A stretch of 64,000 bases of DNA from an uncultured Lachnospiraceae bacterium (GCA_964568425.1 CAZMPO010000002.1:82840-146839), one strand, 5' to 3'. Counted from the first letter of the stretch, positions 17,017-51,524 are shown. The notes: a model not told the origin generated them from the letters alone. Made by a program: numbers and translations.

Positions 17017-17292
17017 TAGGACCATACCGGCCGGGGAGATAGCGGTGCCTTGTAACCTGCAATCCGCTACAGCAGGGGTGGTTTCCGTCTTCGAGGGCAG
17101 CTCGTGTATGGTCTGCACCGAGTTTTCGTGTGTTGAAGGATGGGTCCTGTGCAATCGTCGCCCGTGAACCATGTCAGGTGGGGAACCAAGCAGCATTAAG
17201 CGGGTACGGCGATGTGCCACAGGTTCGCCTGTTCGGAGCATGAGGCTCCTTTTCCGCATATACGGACTGTTCGAAGAGCGGTGTATGGTCTT
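17017..17292 (+). ncRNA. ffs: signal recognition particle RNA, large Bacillus/Clostridium type
   Basis: Domain IV-like motif gtcaggtggggaaccaagcagc. The 5' ggaccatacc (17019-) pairs with the 3' gtgtatggtc (17281-17290). It sits directly upstream of dnaX, as the SRP RNA gene does in Bacillus. Ends are approximate. Confidence 0.8.
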
Positions 17293-31944: not shown

Positions 31945-32224
31945 CCGTTTGAAAATGCTTCGACGGGGAGCAGTAAGACGAAACGCGTCCCACAGAGAGT
32001 GCCGCAGAGCTGAGAGCGGCATGGAAGGTGCGCCGCCCGAAGTCGCCCCCGAGCATCGGTCGTGAAGATCTCTTAGCCTCCGACGGGACTGCCCGTTACA
32101 GCAGTGACCGTACCGTGATATTTTGTTGGTGCGGCATAAAGTGCTCGCTTTTGCGAGAATACGGGTGGTACCGCGTCTTTTCGGCGTCCTGTGGATCTTT
32201 TGATCTGCGGGCGTTTTTTATTTT
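31945..32224 (+). promoter_or_regulatory. T-box leader (probable Val specifier GUC) with terminator
   Basis: Conserved T-box sequence aatacGGGTGGTACCGCG (32156-32175). Stem I elements: agagag, gctgagag. Candidate specifier gaaGTCg at 32052-32054. A terminator hairpin and T-run end at about 32224. Directly upstream of valS. Confidence 0.8.
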
Positions 32225-35003: not shown

Positions 35004-35079
35004 TGGTGCACCCTCGGGGACTCGAACCCCGGACCCACTGATTAAGAGTCAGTTGCTCTACCAACTGAGCTAAGGGTGC
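35004..35079 (-). tRNA. tRNA-Lys (anticodon CUU), CCA encoded
   Basis: Manually folded cloverleaf. Acceptor stem GCACCCT/AGGGTGC, anticodon stem ACTGA/TCAGT with loop CTCTTAA, T arm CGGGG-TTCGAGT-CCCCG. Length 76 nt. Confidence 0.9.
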
Positions 35080-44948: not shown

Positions 44949-44994
44949 ATTTGCAAAAAATTGCATACGCAGTTAGAAAGTGAGACATAATAAA

Positions 44995-46782
44995 ATGGCA
45001 GAATTTTTCAGCTCCTCCGACAAGAGGACGTGCTATTGCGGCACACTGACAAAAGAAAACATAGGACAGGAAGTGACGGTCTGCGGCTGGGTACAGCGTC
45101 AGCGTGACCTCGGATCGCTGATATTCGTCGATCTTCGCGACCGCACGGGTATCGTTCAGCTCGCATTTGACCCGGATACCGATAAGGAACTTTTCGACAA
45201 AGCATTCTCGGTACGCAGTGAATATGTGCTGTCGGTGAAGGGAATCGTCCGCTCAAGAGGAGAGGGCGCGATCAACAAAAACATCCCGACAGGCGAGATC
45301 GAGATCTTCGTTGGCTCGATGAAGGTACTCTCTCAGGCACAGACACCTCCGTTTGAAATATCCGACAGCGCAAAGGTCGGTGACGAGATCGCACTCAAAT
45401 ATCGCTATCTCGATCTTCGCCGCCCCTCGCTCCAGAAGAACATAATGCTCCGTCATAAGATCGCACAGATCGCACGCGATTATTTCTATGAAAACGGATT
45501 TTACGAGATCGAGACCCCGATGATGATCAAGCCCACCCCCGAGGGTGCACGCGATTATCTTGTTCCGTCGCGTATACATCACGGATGTATGTACGCGCTT
45601 CCTCAGTCGCCTCAGATCTACAAACAGCTCCTGATGCTCGGCGGATTTGACAGATATGTGCAGATCGCAAGATGCTTCCGCGATGAGGACCTTCGCGCCG
45701 ATCGCCAGCCCGAGTTCACGCAGATCGACCTTGAAATGTCTTTTGCTACACAGGAAGACATCATGGCGATCAACGAGGGACTTATGCGCAGACTCTATAA
45801 GGAGATACTTGATATCGACCTTGAACCAATGCCGCATATTACATATGATGAGGCGATGAACAGATACGGCTCGGATAAGCCCGATACCCGTTTCGGCATG
45901 GAGATACAGGATGTTTCGAATTTGGTTGCCGATTGCGCGTTCGGCGTGTTCTCGTCGGCTGTCGCAAACGGCGGCTCTGTCCGCGCCATAGTCGTCAAGG
46001 GAGGCGCGGCAAAGCTCTCGCGTAAGGAGATCGATAAGCTTACCGAGCACGCAAAGGGAATCGGCGCGAAGGGACTTGCGTTCGTTCGCTTTGTCGATGA
46101 AACTCCGAACTGCTCGTTCGCGAAGTTCTTTGAAAAGGACGCGCTTGACGCACTTCTTGACTCGATCGATTGCAGAAGGGGCGATGTCGCACTCTTTGTC
46201 GCAGATAAAAATCCGATCGTTCTGTCCACTCTCGGCGCACTCCGCAATATCGTCGCAAGACAGCTCGATATGATCCCTCACGGCAAATATAACTTCCTTT
46301 GGGTCACGGAATTCCCCTTCTTTGAGTGGAATGAGGAGACCGAGCATTGGGATGCCATGCACCATCCCTTCACGATGCCGCATGAGGATTGCCTTCAGTA
46401 TCTCGAAAGCGACCCCGGTAAGGTATACGCACAGTGCTATGACCTCGTGCTCAATGGCACGGAGCTTCTTTCGGGATCAATCAGAATCACCGACTGGGAG
46501 CTTCAGGAAAAGATGTTCAAGGCACTCGGACTCACACCCGAGGAGATCGATGCAAAGTTCGGCTTCCTTGTAGATGCCTATAAGTACGGTGCACCTCCGC
46601 ACGGTGGATCGGGTATGGGACTTGATCGACTCGTTATGACCATGGTCGAGGCTGATTCGCTCCGTGACGTAATAGCCTTCCCGAAGATCCAAAACGCATC
46701 CGAGCCGATGTCGAAATGCCCCGCAAAAGCCGACCCCGCCGCTCTTGCCGAGCTTGGGCTTGCGATCGTCGATGAAGAATGA
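44995..46782 (+). CDS. aspS: aspartate--tRNA ligase
   Basis: OB fold VCGWVQRQRDLGSLIFVDLRD, then FRDEDLRADRQPEFTQID and GGSGMGLDRL. Confidence 0.95.
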   Translation: MAEFFSSSDKRTCYCGTLTKENIGQEVTVCGWVQRQRDLGSLIFVDLRDRTGIVQLAFDPDTDKELFDKAFSVRSEYVLSVKGIVRSRGEGAINKNIPTGEIEIFVGSMKVLSQAQTPPFEISDSAKVGDEIALKYRYLDLRRPSLQKNIMLRHKIAQIARDYFYENGFYEIETPMMIKPTPEGARDYLVPSRIHHGCMYALPQSPQIYKQLLMLGGFDRYVQIARCFRDEDLRADRQPEFTQIDLEMSFATQEDIMAINEGLMRRLYKEILDIDLEPMPHITYDEAMNRYGSDKPDTRFGMEIQDVSNLVADCAFGVFSSAVANGGSVRAIVVKGGAAKLSRKEIDKLTEHAKGIGAKGLAFVRFVDETPNCSFAKFFEKDALDALLDSIDCRRGDVALFVADKNPIVLSTLGALRNIVARQLDMIPHGKYNFLWVTEFPFFEWNEETEHWDAMHHPFTMPHEDCLQYLESDPGKVYAQCYDLVLNGTELLSGSIRITDWELQEKMFKALGLTPEEIDAKFGFLVDAYKYGAPPHGGSGMGLDRLVMTMVEADSLRDVIAFPKIQNASEPMSKCPAKADPAALAELGLAIVDEE

Positions 46783-46803
46783 TAATCATATGATATAGTA
46801 AAA

Positions 46804-46838
46804 ACAGATCAGCTCACCGCTAAGATGAGCTGATCTGT
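46804..46838. terminator. bidirectional terminator between aspS and the feo operon
   Basis: 13-bp stem acagatcagctca / tgagctgatctgt flanked by A- and T-rich tracts. Confidence 0.75.
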
Positions 46839-46849
46839 TTGTATGTGTC

Positions 46850-47029
46850 TTATTTTTTGTGGCATGCGCCCGACATTGCGCACTTTGCACAACCGCCGCA
46901 ACAGGAACTCTTGCCGCTCTTTTTGTCCTTGATAAGACTTGCGATGATCAGCGTTACGATGCCGACAAGCAGTACGCAGATCGAGACCGTCACAATGCCT
47001 GAAATGTTTGATGCTATCCATTCGAGCAT
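46850..47029 (-). CDS. FeoB-associated Cys-rich membrane protein (59 aa; below the ORF-track cutoff)
   Basis: Hand translation gives MLEWIASNISGIVTVSICVLLVGIVTLIIASLIKDKKSGKSSCCGGCAKCAMSGACHKK. SD aaggagga lies 6 nt before ATG 47029, which is 13 nt after the feoB stop. Confidence 0.75.
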   Translation of the reverse strand: MLEWIASNISGIVTVSICVLLVGIVTLIIASLIKDKKSGKSSCCGGCAKCAMSGACHKK

Positions 47030-49572: not shown

Positions 49573-49794
49573 TTATTCGACTTCGATCATCGCCGCGTCG
49601 GCTTTTCTGATCGAAAGCTCGTATCCGCGTACGGTGATCTCAATGGGATCGCCGAGCGGTGCGATCTTGCGAACCGATACCTCGGTTCCTTTTGTAAGCC
49701 CCATGTCCATAATGCGACGCTTCGTCGCACCAACACCCGTGAGCCTTACTATCCTTACACGCTCACCAATGTTTGCATCTTTAAGTGTTTTCAC
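49573..49794 (-). CDS. feoA: FeoA family protein
   Basis: 73-aa SH3-like protein (RRIMDMGLTKGTEV..PLGDPIEI). Confidence 0.85.
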   Translation of the reverse strand: MKTLKDANIGERVRIVRLTGVGATKRRIMDMGLTKGTEVSVRKIAPLGDPIEITVRGYELSIRKADAAMIEVE

Positions 49795-49825: not shown

Positions 49826-50050
49826 TTATACCATGATCTTTTGCGCCATTTCGCGACTTATGGCAACTCGCGCCTCTTTGATCTTTACGATCACGTTGCC
49901 TCCGAGCGATGTGACGATCTGCGTGCTCTCTCCCGGCACGAATCCGAGGTCGGCAAGATGTTGCCTCGTTTCGGTCGAACCGCCGACCTTCTTTATTGTT
50001 ACCTCGCACCCCATGTCCGCAAGTGTCAGTGGGATCATCTCTGTGATCAT
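49826..50050 (-). CDS. feoA: FeoA family protein (second copy)
   Basis: 74 aa (RQHLADLGFVPGE..SLGGNVIVKI). Confidence 0.85.
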   Translation of the reverse strand: MITEMIPLTLADMGCEVTIKKVGGSTETRQHLADLGFVPGESTQIVTSLGGNVIVKIKEARVAISREMAQKIMV

Positions 50051-50073
50051 TCCTTTCCGTTTCCGTCTTACGA

Positions 50074-50159
50074 AGTTAGCACAAACTAACCGTATTGCCG
50101 AATAATCGGTTAGTAAAAACTAACCTCATACCCAAACAATAGGTTAGCCTCAACTAACC
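50074..50159 (-). promoter_or_regulatory. three phased 18-bp palindromes (GGTTAG-N6-CTAACC) in the feo leader; putative operator array
   Basis: Sites at 50074-50091, 50108-50125 and 50142-50159, with starts exactly 34 bp apart. They lie between the predicted -10 element and the feoA ATG. Confidence 0.55.
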
Positions 50160-50166
50160 ACGCAAT

Positions 50167-50195
50167 ATAATACACCATTTATTCGATTTTGTCAA
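50167..50195 (-). promoter_or_regulatory. sigma-A type promoter for feoA-feoA-feoB (TTGACA-17-TATTAT)
   Basis: On the minus strand, TTGACA is at 50195-50190 and TATTAT at 50172-50167. Confidence 0.55.
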
Positions 50196-50240
50196 GGGGT
50201 TTTTGAAAAAAAGTTTAATTTTTTTAAAAAATTTTCAAAA
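50187..50240. repeat. AT-rich promoter-upstream module, copy B (see 35138-35190)
   Basis: Shares ttttgtcaaggggtttttgaaaaaaagttt exactly with copy A and has the same position relative to the -35 element. Confidence 0.8.
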
Positions 50241-50410
50241 GAGCACAAAAAAATCGATCGGCTCAAGATAAGTTCTTGAACCGATCGATAAAATCACCAC
50301 ATTGTCAATAGATTTTTAACTTTTTTATAAAAAGCGAGCGCCAAAAAAGGCGTGATATACAAAGAGACCCCGCCGAGAAACGAGGATTAAATCGACTGCT
50401 CGAACGCACC

Positions 50411-50544
50411 CGTAGGGCGGGGGCTTGCTCCCGCCGCTTTTTGGCGGTCGATTTATAATAAATTGGCGAGATCGCAAAGAAATTACACCGAGATATCCTA
50501 CACCGATTATCCAAGAGGCGGCGGGAGCAAGCCCCCGCCCTACG
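50411..50544. repeat. perfect 27-bp GC-rich inverted repeat flanking an 80-nt spacer
   Basis: cgtagggcgggggcttgctcccgccgc (50411-50437) is the exact reverse complement of 50518-50544. Each arm also forms its own hairpin (GGCGGG..CCCGCC). Confidence 0.85.
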
Positions 50545-50718
50545 ACAGGTGCTTATTTCGGTGGTCAATTAATTACAAATCCAATCATAAAAAAGCAATT
50601 TGCAAAAACACGATTTAATCATCGTTTCCCCCAAAGGGAGGCTCAGGCGTAACTTTTTCGCGATATCGCCGACATGGTATATATCGACCTGCCAAAGAAA
50701 AGGCGGTCGACGCATAAC

Positions 50719-50765: not shown

Positions 50766-51335
50766 TCAGAGTGTTATGTCTTTTTTATCCTTGAGATATT
50801 TTTCAAGCATGCCGCAGAGAAGTGCTCCGAGGAAGCCGACAACTATGCCAACGACTATGCCGCCAAGGACATCGGTCGGGAAGTGAATGTAGAGATAGAG
50901 TCGCGAAAAAGCGATAAGGACGGCGATCACCGTTGCGGGGATGCCGAACTTCCAATTTTTCTTGAAGAGCAGTGCGCAACAGGACGCAAAGGATGCCGCG
51001 GTGTGTCCGGACGGGAAAGAGTAGTCGGACGGCGGATCTGCGTGGATCAGTGCTTTGATCTTGTCAAGCATATCGGGGTTCAGCGTATAAGGTCTGATCC
51101 TGTGCACGATCGGCTTAAGTATCAGATTACAGCAGAGCAGATCGAGGATAAGCGCGATGCCCATTGCAACGCCGAGCGGTCGTGTTTTCTTTATGATGAT
51201 GAAAACAAGCGCAAGTGCGATCCAGAAGATGCCCGCATCACCGAGATGTGTGATGATCGGTAAAACAGTGTCAAATAGGGCATTGTGCAGATTTTCCCAA
51301 ATGAAATCCAAAATGCCGAGTTCAAATTGATTCAT
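50766..51335 (-). CDS. PAP2-family phosphatase (undecaprenyl-diphosphatase-like)
   Basis: Motifs: KPIVHRIRP, FPSGHT, SRLYLYIHFPTDVLGG. ATG 51335 has SD gaaaggaaa; the track ORF extends to 51368. Confidence 0.8.
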   Translation of the reverse strand: MNQFELGILDFIWENLHNALFDTVLPIITHLGDAGIFWIALALVFIIIKKTRPLGVAMGIALILDLLCCNLILKPIVHRIRPYTLNPDMLDKIKALIHADPPSDYSFPSGHTAASFASCCALLFKKNWKFGIPATVIAVLIAFSRLYLYIHFPTDVLGGIVVGIVVGFLGALLCGMLEKYLKDKKDITL

Positions 51336-51524
51336 GATCTTCGTTTTCCTTTCTTGAGTTTTGATCATTCGATTTTCTCCATTATATCACAAAGCTTTGG
51401 AAAAATCAATAGCAGAGACGATAATTTTGTTGAGAAGCCGACGCATTTTGACAAATAAGTCGGAATTGTCGGTGTAAGATATGCATATAGATATAAATTA
51501 CACCCAAAAGGAGCTGATCCCATA

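Follow-up and report, generated by a model that had tools for sequence, protein, structure and literature searches.

A predicted DtxR-type operator array with a 34-bp period in the feo leader of an uncultured Lachnospiraceae bacterium and related Clostridia

The feo operon and its leader

We analyzed a 64,000-nucleotide (64 kb) stretch of DNA from an uncultured Lachnospiraceae bacterium, referred to here as the window, which carries a feo operon on its minus strand (Table 1). Operon genes were identified by Pfam and NCBIfam profile matches, and these confirmed the feoA-feoA-feoB order reported in an initial annotation of the same DNA. That annotation also placed the ATG of the first feoA at 50050; the gene stands, while by homology translation probably begins at the second ATG, 50038 (MIPLTL...), which matches the 70-aa FeoA gene calls of relatives. 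The organism belongs to the spore-forming Clostridia, with SpoIIE, a T-box and a large SRP RNA in the window, and the best FeoB homologues were found in Oscillospirales/Acutalibacteraceae-like metagenome bins.

Table 1. Features of the feo locus, with positions counted from the first letter of the window. L001, L002 and L004 are relatives described in the text.
Feature	Position	Strand	Basis and remarks
A/T-rich tract 5' of the -35, UP-element-like	50196-50250	-	Direct read; proximal part kept in L001 and L002; function putative
-35 hexamer TTGACA, feo promoter	50190-50195	-	Consensus scan; invariant in alignment with L001, L002 and L004
-10 hexamer TATTAT, feo promoter	50167-50172	-	Consensus scan; alignment with relatives
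Predicted operator O1	50142-50159	.	GGTTAGttgaggCTAACC on the mRNA strand, GGTTAGcctcaaCTAACC as read in the window; exact match; covers predicted +1
Linker 1, 16 bp	50126-50141	-	tATTGTTTgggtatga; A/T-rich proximal part, then G/C
Predicted operator O2	50108-50125	.	GGTTAGtttttaCTAACC on the mRNA strand, GGTTAGtaaaaaCTAACC as read in the window; exact match; 34 bp from O1
Linker 2, 16 bp	50092-50107	-	gATTATTCggcaatac; A/T-then-G/C pattern like linker 1
Predicted operator O3	50074-50091	.	GGTTAGtttgtgCTAACT on the mRNA strand, AGTTAGcacaaaCTAACC as read in the window; 1 mismatch, at the outermost position; 34 bp from O2
feoA, first copy	49826-50050	-	PF04023, E = 8e-15
feoA, second copy	49573-49794	-	PF04023, E = 6e-22
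feoB, ferrous iron transporter, 835 aa	47042-49549	-	TIGR00437, 548 bits; FeoB_N, Gate, FeoB_C
FeoB-associated Cys-rich membrane protein, last operon gene	46850-47029	-	PF12669, E = 8e-10
Terminator-like hairpin and T-run closing the feo operon	46800-46838	-	Direct read
AspS, convergent neighbour beyond the operon end	44980-46782	+	Domain/family annotation

The promoter noted earlier ahead of the operon is real as a consensus match, with 11 of 12 positions of TTGACA-17 nt-TATTAT agreeing (minus strand, 50195-50167). From the usual 7 nt distance to the -10 hexamer, transcription is predicted to start at about 50160-50159. Three 18-bp palindromes, GGTTAG-N6-CTAACC, follow this promoter, and a direct read of the sequence confirmed both their presence in the feo leader and the exact start-to-start spacing of 34 and 34 bp that had been claimed for them. 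O1 begins 7 nt after the -10 hexamer, and the three sites occupy approximately +2 to +19, +36 to +53 and +70 to +87 of the predicted transcript, which upholds the earlier placement of the array between the -10 and the feoA ATG at roughly +1 to +86. When one mismatch was allowed, the motif matched three times in the whole 64 kb, always in the feo leader, while shuffles gave 0.03 expected sites per window and reached three sites in 0 of 100 cases. At up to two mismatches the count remained three, with 0.93 expected from shuffles.

Fur boxes control feoAB in Bacillus, Clostridioides difficile and the Proteobacteria. A scan for the 7-1-7 Fur box (TGATAATNATTATCA) at up to three mismatches returned five matches in the window, none within 1 kb of the feo promoter and the nearest several kb away, and we rejected Fur control of this promoter because no box lay nearby at this threshold. 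The arrangement proposed below resembles Fur at feoAB in that iron-dependent repression would act through sites overlapping the promoter, while the protein family and the motif are unrelated.

Conservation and distribution of the array

Contigs encoding FeoB at 96% (L001), 89% (L002) and 78% (L004) identity were compared with the window. Three sites followed the same promoter in both L001 and L002, at spacings of 34 and 36 bp in the former and 33 and 35 bp in the latter. L004 carried one exact site after the -10 and one degenerate site 34 bp from it, and a further site lay about 100 bp ahead of its promoter. When the four leaders were aligned, no variation was seen in the -35, the -10 or any half-site column, while the N6 spacers and the linkers differed. 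Conservation in the feo leaders of relatives, which the initial annotation had put forward as a check, was thus observed for the half-sites at all three levels of FeoB identity. Arms kept in sequence, with loops and linkers free to change, is the look expected of a protein-binding site.

To survey the arrangement more widely, we took a single genome for each species (185,579 genomes, 596 Gb in total) and searched for pairs of exact sites with 5-35 bp between them, corresponding to start-to-start distances of 23-53 bp. The double-site pattern was observed at at least 119 loci, compared with about 0.07 expected by chance in our own calculation (24 specified bases, 31 gap lengths, 596 Gb). Almost all of the listed loci were from Clostridia of gut, rumen or digesters, and hosts among the matches listed included Ruminococcus, Oscillospiraceae, Acutalibacteraceae, Faecalibacterium, Flavonifractor, Lachnospiraceae, Christensenellales, Anaerovoracaceae and one member of the Selenomonadales.

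Genes for feoA or feoB lay directly downstream of the array in 87 of the 119 listed loci. Among the remaining 32 listed loci, DUF3793 was a recurrent neighbour (8 loci); in L041 (Flavonifractor sp. An82), the only such locus examined, it was followed by a flavodoxin gene. Other neighbours of arrays included an FTR1 iron permease, a ZIP transporter, NifH-family proteins, ABC exporters, DUF2325, TusA and a DtxR-like gene. Ferrous-iron uptake and flavodoxin are the classic content of a regulon turned on under iron scarcity, and, judged by their annotation, the array targets are the content of such a low-iron regulon.

The distances between sites were narrowly distributed. Among the loci listed, pairs of exact sites were 33 bp apart in 3 cases, 34 bp in 82, 35 bp in 28 and 36 bp in 7, and the corresponding numbers at up to two mismatches were 3, 96, 33 and 7. 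A period of 34 or 35 bp accounted for approximately 90% of the site pairs in the listed loci, with only a few at 23-25 bp; L112 was one locus with a 23-bp period. Spacings tended to be equal within one array (34,34 in 11 arrays; 35,35 in 4 arrays), and compensating spacings that would hold the O1-O3 distance constant were therefore not supported. First linkers compared across species showed 39% pairwise identity, with 40% expected from the position profile, i.e. their sequence is saturated. Since the linker sequence is saturated yet the period stays at 34-35 bp, linker length is kept by selection and not by recent descent. The initial annotation gave the 34-bp spacing but did not single it out; the period itself is the conserved and unusual part of the feature.

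Because loci entered the comparative set only with two exact sites, part of the invariance of these two follows from the selection itself. It was also evident that 34-bp units do duplicate, with four-site arrays having similar linkers in some species (L014, L071, L088, L110), as would be expected if the array were a non-functional tandem repeat. We give this reading, or that of chance palindromes, practically no credence and discarded it on several grounds: the 0.03 sites expected in the window, the at least 119 loci observed in 596 Gb where about 0.07 were expected, the fixed position relative to the -10, and half-sites that are conserved between saturated linkers.

Of 79 related feo leaders, about 74 had a TTGACA-17-TATAAT architecture. 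The distance from the -10 to the start of the first site was 6-16 nt in 74 of the 79, with a mode of 7 nt, and further sites followed at +34 and +68 from the first. Additional sites were observed at other positions as well. An extra site at -23 exactly filled the spacer between the -35 and the -10 (TTGACA-GGTTAGnnnnnnCTAAC-TATAAT) in 10 loci, an exact site lay at -19 in 7 loci, and a site 75-101 bp upstream of the -10 hexamer end was seen in 13 loci. About 10 loci carried a lone site just 5' of the feoB ribosome-binding site.

The linkers also showed a polar composition. Positions 2-8 were approximately 90-95% A/T in 74 leaders, with T at 51-81% on the mRNA strand, while position 10 was G in 60% and position 11 was C in 37% of the same leaders. 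This A/T-then-G/C pattern was observed only where another site follows and was missing after the last site. Linker 2 of longer arrays was A-rich and not T-rich, and the linkers of non-feo targets such as L041 were likewise A-rich. A search of the linker for a second offset dimer site or a cryptic half-site returned only a weak TTnGC-like bias at offsets 23-24 of the repeat unit (mean 2.9 of 5 matches), which we found unconvincing.

The palindromes as DNA or RNA elements

A logo of 273 unique sites read GGTTAG-[C 52%]-N4-[G 52%]-CTAACC, equivalent to TTAGS-N4-SCTAA, with unconserved outer flanks. The initial annotation had likened the half-sites to those of the DtxR/IdeR iron box, and they do share the pentamer TTAGS/SCTAA; it had also regarded the separation of the half-sites as a different geometry with novel spacing. 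In the crystal structure of IdeR on DNA, each dimer contacts CCTAA repeats 1 and 3 or 2 and 4, that is pentamer-N4-pentamer, and a half box binds one dimer (PMC8464063). The claim of novel spacing fails because TTAGS-N4-SCTAA is the geometry of one IdeR dimer, a layout which also matches the SloR 6-6-6 repeats and the TroR motif considered below; the geometry had seemed different because the comparison was made with the overlapped double-dimer box. A full 19-bp iron box for two dimers was not found, as no pentamer pair offset by 5 bp was present in the 273-site logo. We predict that the array unit is an ordinary one-dimer site of the DtxR family.

Palindromes within a leader may also act in the transcript, and three hairpins in the 5' UTR had been offered earlier as one of two explanations. 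Each site does fold as a 7-bp stem with a 4-nt loop (-5.9 to -7.3 kcal/mol), and the whole leader folds better than its shuffles (z = -5.1), the latter being a trivial consequence of three identical palindromes. The minimum-energy fold of the window leader is not three hairpins, as O1 is paired with O3 and the two linkers with each other. A conserved larger RNA structure was considered on this basis and rejected; in L001 and L002 the linkers lack this complementarity, so the fold is a by-product of repeated palindromes. No Rfam family was found at 50040-50200, and only SRP RNA, T-box and tRNA passed thresholds in the window.

The arms were invariant and showed no covariation. Among the 32 degenerate in-register sites, deviations were nearly confined to positions 0, 16 and 17, and a pair is broken in 12. 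Arm invariance alone neither favours nor rules against pairing. By our own count, 7 of 13 transcribed degenerate sites break a pair, and at the second base pair of downstream transcribed degenerate sites the change of C to T at position 16 occurred six times and that of G to A at position 1 did not occur.

We place the primary function at the DNA level because relatives have untranscribed sites, covariation is absent, the hairpins are weak and Rfam gave no match. These observations argue against the hairpins as the primary function of the array. A pure RNA element, in which hairpins of the 5' UTR would act through an RNA-binding factor or by structure alone and with no DNA-binding protein, would account for the hairpin predicted at every site and for the leader z-score, but we consider it highly improbable. 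The sites of relatives lie inside promoter spacers and upstream of the -35, the arms do not vary in sequence at all, although covariation would be expected of a structural element, the half-site is identical to the IdeR pentamer, and genes of the DtxR family are strongly co-located with the arrays (see below).

Dual use of the sites, as repressor operators with an added role in RNA, is unlikely in our estimation, though less so than a pure RNA element. A 5'-terminal hairpin at +1/+2 might stabilise the mRNA, or hairpin 1 with the U-rich tract behind it might form a weak early terminator or pause site that dampens leaky transcription. In keeping with this, the stems have 7 bp and 4-nt loops of the stability given above, a consensus scan flagged 50159-50142 together with TATTGTTT as terminator-like, and the 7-8 nt behind site 1 are rich in T, specifically on the mRNA strand (74 leaders). 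The substitutions at the second pair, where only those retaining a G.U pair were seen and never those breaking it, and the lone site before the feoB ribosome-binding site in about 10 loci would also fit. However, the stems are weak for terminators, and the U-run is not general, since second linkers and non-feo targets (L041) are A-rich. The transcribed degenerate sites that break a pair, the absence of covariation and of an Rfam match, and the pairing of site 1 with site 3 in the minimum-energy fold of the window also speak against it.

Candidate regulator and proposed mechanism

The absence of an adjacent regulator gene, as noted earlier, extends to the entire 64-kb window, in which tblastn with seven queries (two class B proteins, defined below, and five further ones) detected no DtxR-like gene (best E = 0.015). 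The regulator of this genome would therefore lie outside the window. In other species such genes were frequent near the arrays. A DtxR-like gene was present within the fetched stretch (up to 8 kb) in 41 of 123 loci, and 28 of the 119 listed arrays had a gene of one type, termed class A, oriented away from the array and starting no more than 350 bp from it (typically 120-250 bp). This density of class A genes beside arrays is far above chance for a gene present once or twice per genome.

Class A proteins have about 123 aa and consist of PF01325 and PF02742 (DNA-binding and metal/dimerisation domains), with no SH3 or FeoA domain. They do not reach the cut-off of any curated NCBIfam MntR or DtxR model, and their homologues, numbering at least 7,985, are named only as "metal-dependent" or "Mn-dependent DtxR family" regulators. 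A phmmer alignment of the class A protein of L061 with DtxR (chain 1g3y) matched M9 to Met10 and DACRIEH to EACRWEH. Met10, Cys102, Glu105, His106, His79 and the S-x-P-x-V-S helix are kept in class A, while Glu83 and His98 are lost. The motif [DE][AS]C.[ILVMW]EH was found in 30 of 38 regulators near arrays, and a sub-group of the array-linked regulators has Asp instead of Met10. Between DtxR and MntR, the Met/Cys pair goes with selectivity for Fe(II) and not Mn(II). The ligand set of class A is of this Fe(II) type, from which we infer iron as the effector, and this fits the content of the regulon.

We compared the array with known systems of the same family. With the IdeR/DtxR iron box of Actinobacteria (TTAGGTTAGSCTAACCTAA) it shares the pentamer and the pentamer-N4-pentamer distance, a regulator built of PF01325 and PF02742 that retains the primary ligands Met10, Cys102, Glu105 and His106 and the S-x-P-x-V-S helix, and, as proposed here, an iron-loaded repressor acting on iron-uptake promoters. 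It differs in having one dimer site per unit, the outer flank being GG/CC and not a second pentamer, and in a class A regulator that lacks the SH3-like third domain and the ancillary-site ligands Glu83 and His98. The hosts also differ, as the sites described here occur in low-GC Clostridia, in arrays with a 34-35 bp period, while Fe/Mn DtxR proteins were assigned largely to GC-rich Gram-positives and archaea in a 2024 review (PMC11672702).

SloR of Streptococcus mutans, acting at sloABC and mntH, is likewise of the DtxR family and binds 6-6-6 inverted repeats, three tandem sites of which overlap the promoter (PMC12096823). Its homodimers bind neighbouring sites cooperatively, the dimer-dimer contact being mediated by a C-terminal FeoA domain (PMC12096823). 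The SloR half-site is AATTAA instead of GGTTAG, its sites lie 4 bp apart with a period of 22 bp (72 bp in total) over the -35 and -10 instead of 34 bp apart downstream of the -10, its effector is Mn, and the Clostridial regulators have no C-terminal FeoA domain. MntR at Bacillus subtilis mneP offers a further parallel, being a two-domain protein of the family (no SH3) that binds several 18-bp sites in a row (PMC11275975), with direct dimer-dimer contacts and a cooperativity that sharpens the metal response (PMC11275975). There, four sites are packed in 84 bp at a period of about 21-22 bp with dimers touching, the array lies upstream of the promoter and activates, and the sites are of low affinity with Mn(II) as effector, unlike the 34-35 bp period, the consensus-perfect sites and the Fe-type ligand set described here. 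The close-packed SloR/MntR-type arrangement (sites 3-4 bp apart, period about 21-22 bp) was not found in the window, where the period is 34 bp.

TroR of Haloferax volcanii recognises TTTAGGC-N3-CCTAAA, which is also a pentamer-N4-pentamer palindrome (PMC10783522). It represses iron uptake when iron is replete, and its tandem motifs at a siderophore operon are about 30 bp apart, either being sufficient (PMC10783522). This system is archaeal, with the motif about 100 nt upstream of start codons at TATA/BRE-type promoters (PMC10783522); it has two sites, where 2-5 occur here, no strict period is reported, and its targets are siderophore and ABC genes and not feo.

Fur is the regulator usually credited with iron control in low-GC Gram-positives. 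DtxR proteins that sense iron are regarded as typical of Actinobacteria and archaea (PMC11672702). In the full-text literature we found no published description of GGTTAG-N6-CTAACC arrays or of a DtxR-feo regulon in Clostridia, with prior annotation in RegPrecise-type databases possible. A DtxR-family operator array is of an already known kind. What appears new is a predicted DtxR-type iron regulon in low-GC Clostridia, the deployment of a one-dimer IdeR-like site in arrays, the fixed period of 34-35 bp in place of the approximately 22 bp of SloR and MntR arrays, and the asymmetric (polar) A/T-rich linker. The data point to a widespread DtxR-type iron regulon comprising feoAB, flavodoxin, FTR1 and ZIP, with hosts in the Oscillospirales, Lachnospirales, Christensenellales and relatives, the groups that dominate butyrate production and fibre degradation in gut and rumen. 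The motif appears sharp enough for predicting iron-responsive genes from metagenome-assembled genomes of uncultured species, and the regulon may bear on how commensals respond to host iron withholding or oral iron. Next to the overlapping IdeR double dimer and the SloR and MntR sites packed at 22 bp, the period would add a third geometry of DtxR arrays, and the arrays could serve as a clean natural system for studying how spacing sets cooperativity.

We consider it likely that the three palindromes are operators for a dimeric two-domain Fe(II)-sensing repressor of the DtxR/IdeR type. The earlier suggestion of an operator array for a metal-responsive repressor is thereby supported, by conservation, regulon content, co-location with DtxR-family genes and site geometry. 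Each GG-TTAGs-N4-sCTAA-CC site would take one dimer, with one winged-helix domain per TTAGS pentamer. When iron is sufficient, the metal-loaded repressor would occupy O1 at the start site and O2 and O3 in the early transcribed region. Positioned at about +2 to +87 from the predicted start of a strong sigma-A promoter, the array could both block initiation and act as a roadblock, with bound repressor preventing open-complex formation or promoter escape and the downstream dimers serving as roadblocks. When iron is scarce, the apo-repressor would leave and the feoA-feoA-feoB-(FeoB-associated) operon would be transcribed. The fixed 34-35 bp period together with the A/T-rich proximal linker suggests that neighbouring dimers are not independent, and their cooperative assembly would sharpen the response.

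Some observations do not sit easily with a class A repressor acting in this way. The period differs from the close packing of SloR and MntR at about 22 bp, and 34 bp corresponds to 3.24 helical turns, leaving neighbours about 86 degrees out of phase, where simple side-by-side cooperativity predicts otherwise. The T-rich tract after O1 has the look of a hairpin followed by a U-run, and the small strand asymmetry of the degenerate sites leaves room for an added role at the RNA level. The lack of a DtxR-like gene in the window and the regulator carried by the relatives at 78% FeoB identity, described below, also count against it.

On straight DNA, contact between two-domain dimers is not expected at a distance of 34 bp. 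Interaction between them might occur via DNA bending at the A/T tract or via a bridging factor. FeoA has an SH3-like fold, as does the C-terminal cooperativity domain of SloR, and this fold is domain-swapped between adjacent IdeR complexes. One conceivable, though very unlikely, bridge is thus formed by the free-standing FeoA proteins encoded in the operon, which would link two-domain dimers in trans; the strict 34-35 bp period and the one-sided A/T hinge would then be the marks of a novel type of repressor assembly. If so, feo transcription would be subject to feedback from a subunit of the transporter itself, and the Clostridial regulator would have split off the third DtxR domain into a separate regulated gene.

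A regulator other than class A would leave the array an operator and change the signal that it answers to, perhaps to one other than direct Fe(II) binding. The protein could be an unrelated winged-helix protein or one of class B, a DtxR-like paralogue of 127-130 aa with an S-K-P-S-V helix and none of the metal ligands (the equivalents of Met10, Cys102, Glu105 and His106). A class B gene (127 aa), with this same helix, follows feoB in L003 and L004 (78% FeoB identity), the closest long-contig relatives, whose operon thus carries class B in place of class A, and in L098 the class B start is 2 bp from the array; the window itself has neither class. We nevertheless regard a regulator of this kind as quite unlikely, as class A genes stand beside arrays in 28 loci and class B in 1, and the half-site matches the sequence read by the recognition helix of DtxR/IdeR. 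Class A and class B share the recognition helix, so both may bind the same site, and the choice between them alters the signal and not the nature of the element.

Linker polarity and sites beyond the main array

The linkers between neighbouring sites were observed to be polar, both in the window (16 bp each, 50092-50107 and 50126-50141) and in 74 related leaders, with positions 2-8 after each non-terminal site being 90-95% A/T and followed by G/C at positions 10-11. This A/T-then-G/C pattern was absent 3' of the last site of an array. A symmetric dimer does not account for such polarity.

Sites were also observed outside the main array in the related loci fetched for comparison (L-numbers in the table). 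In several loci the feoA2-feoB spacer carried a single exact GGTTAG-N6-CTAACC, located approximately 5-25 nt 5' of the feoB ribosome-binding site. Such a lone site could form an RNA hairpin, or it could act within the operon as a roadblock or as an operator. The corresponding spacer in the window is 23 bp and therefore has no room for a lone site. An additional site recurred approximately 108 bp 5' of O1, the first site after the -10 element, and not in the feo transcript; it could act in looping or serve a divergent gene. The window had no additional site at this distance.

Features within the window (bare coordinates) and in related loci (L-numbers)
Feature	Position	Strand	Remark
Lone feoA2-feoB spacer site	L050:4689; L063:3700; L082:5993; L087:2217; L109:1684; L003:133; L114:4809; L068:773; L033:2188		
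Additional upstream site	L004, L005, L016, L068, L111		at -101
Additional upstream site	L011, L063, L082, L083, L089		at -83 to -95
Three-site array	L112:938-1001		perfect 23-bp tandem repeat
Array	L024:3110-3161		directly 5' of ribosomal protein S4 gene
Two sites, Nocardia	L065:660-701		24 bp apart
Class B gene	L003:2958-3341; L004:7793-8176		further copies in L120, L087, L097, L098
Terminator-like hairpin, very strong	50253-50289	minus	16-bp stem then T7
Second hairpin, GC-rich	50416-50435		130 bp farther upstream than the first
T-box leader	31951-32194	plus	
Large bacterial SRP RNA	17022-17288	plus	
tRNA-Lys(CTT)	35004-35079	minus	

Unusual arrays and host range

The array in a sediment Bacillota MAG (L112), aaggtGGTTAGnnnnnnCTAACC x3, lies 5' of a TusA-like gene, and its close packing resembles that of SloR and MntR arrays while differing from the 34-bp arrays. 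The ribosomal protein S4 gene (PF00163 + PF01479) was a single case among the matches listed, and iron regulators would not be expected to control such a gene. One actinobacterial match was also among those listed, Nocardia sp. SYP-A9097, where the two GGTTAG-N6-CTAACC sites precede a gene for a 459-aa secreted-looking protein. Bins labelled Absicoccus, Flexilinea and Bacteroidaceae (L014, L049, L071) contained feo arrays of the 3-4 site type, as in Clostridia bins L088 and L110, with FeoB approximately 69% identical to that of the window; contaminated bins are the probable explanation here, and not a broader range of hosts.

Class B paralogue and feo surroundings

Class B, a second DtxR-like paralogue of 127-130 aa, shares the S-K-P-S-V recognition helix with class A, the candidate regulator with Fe(II)-type ligands, and has no metal ligands. 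In the 78%-identity relatives of the window (L003 and L004) it was observed inside the feo operon, downstream of feoB and a Cys-rich protein, neighboured by small ORFs without assigned function and DUF2325. In L098 it starts 2 bp from an array.

In the window, the very strong hairpin lies directly 5' of the A/T tract of the feo promoter, and the two hairpins probably act as insulation between this promoter and the PAP2-family gene (50766-51368). An 87-aa ORF at 50305-50568 had no Pfam match. The first feoA ORF begins at ATG 50050, and homologues begin at the equivalent of ATG 50038 (MIPLTL..., 70 aa); the start as annotated probably lies 12 nt too far 5'. The T-box leader, SRP RNA and tRNA-Lys(CTT) of the window are ordinary in a Firmicute.
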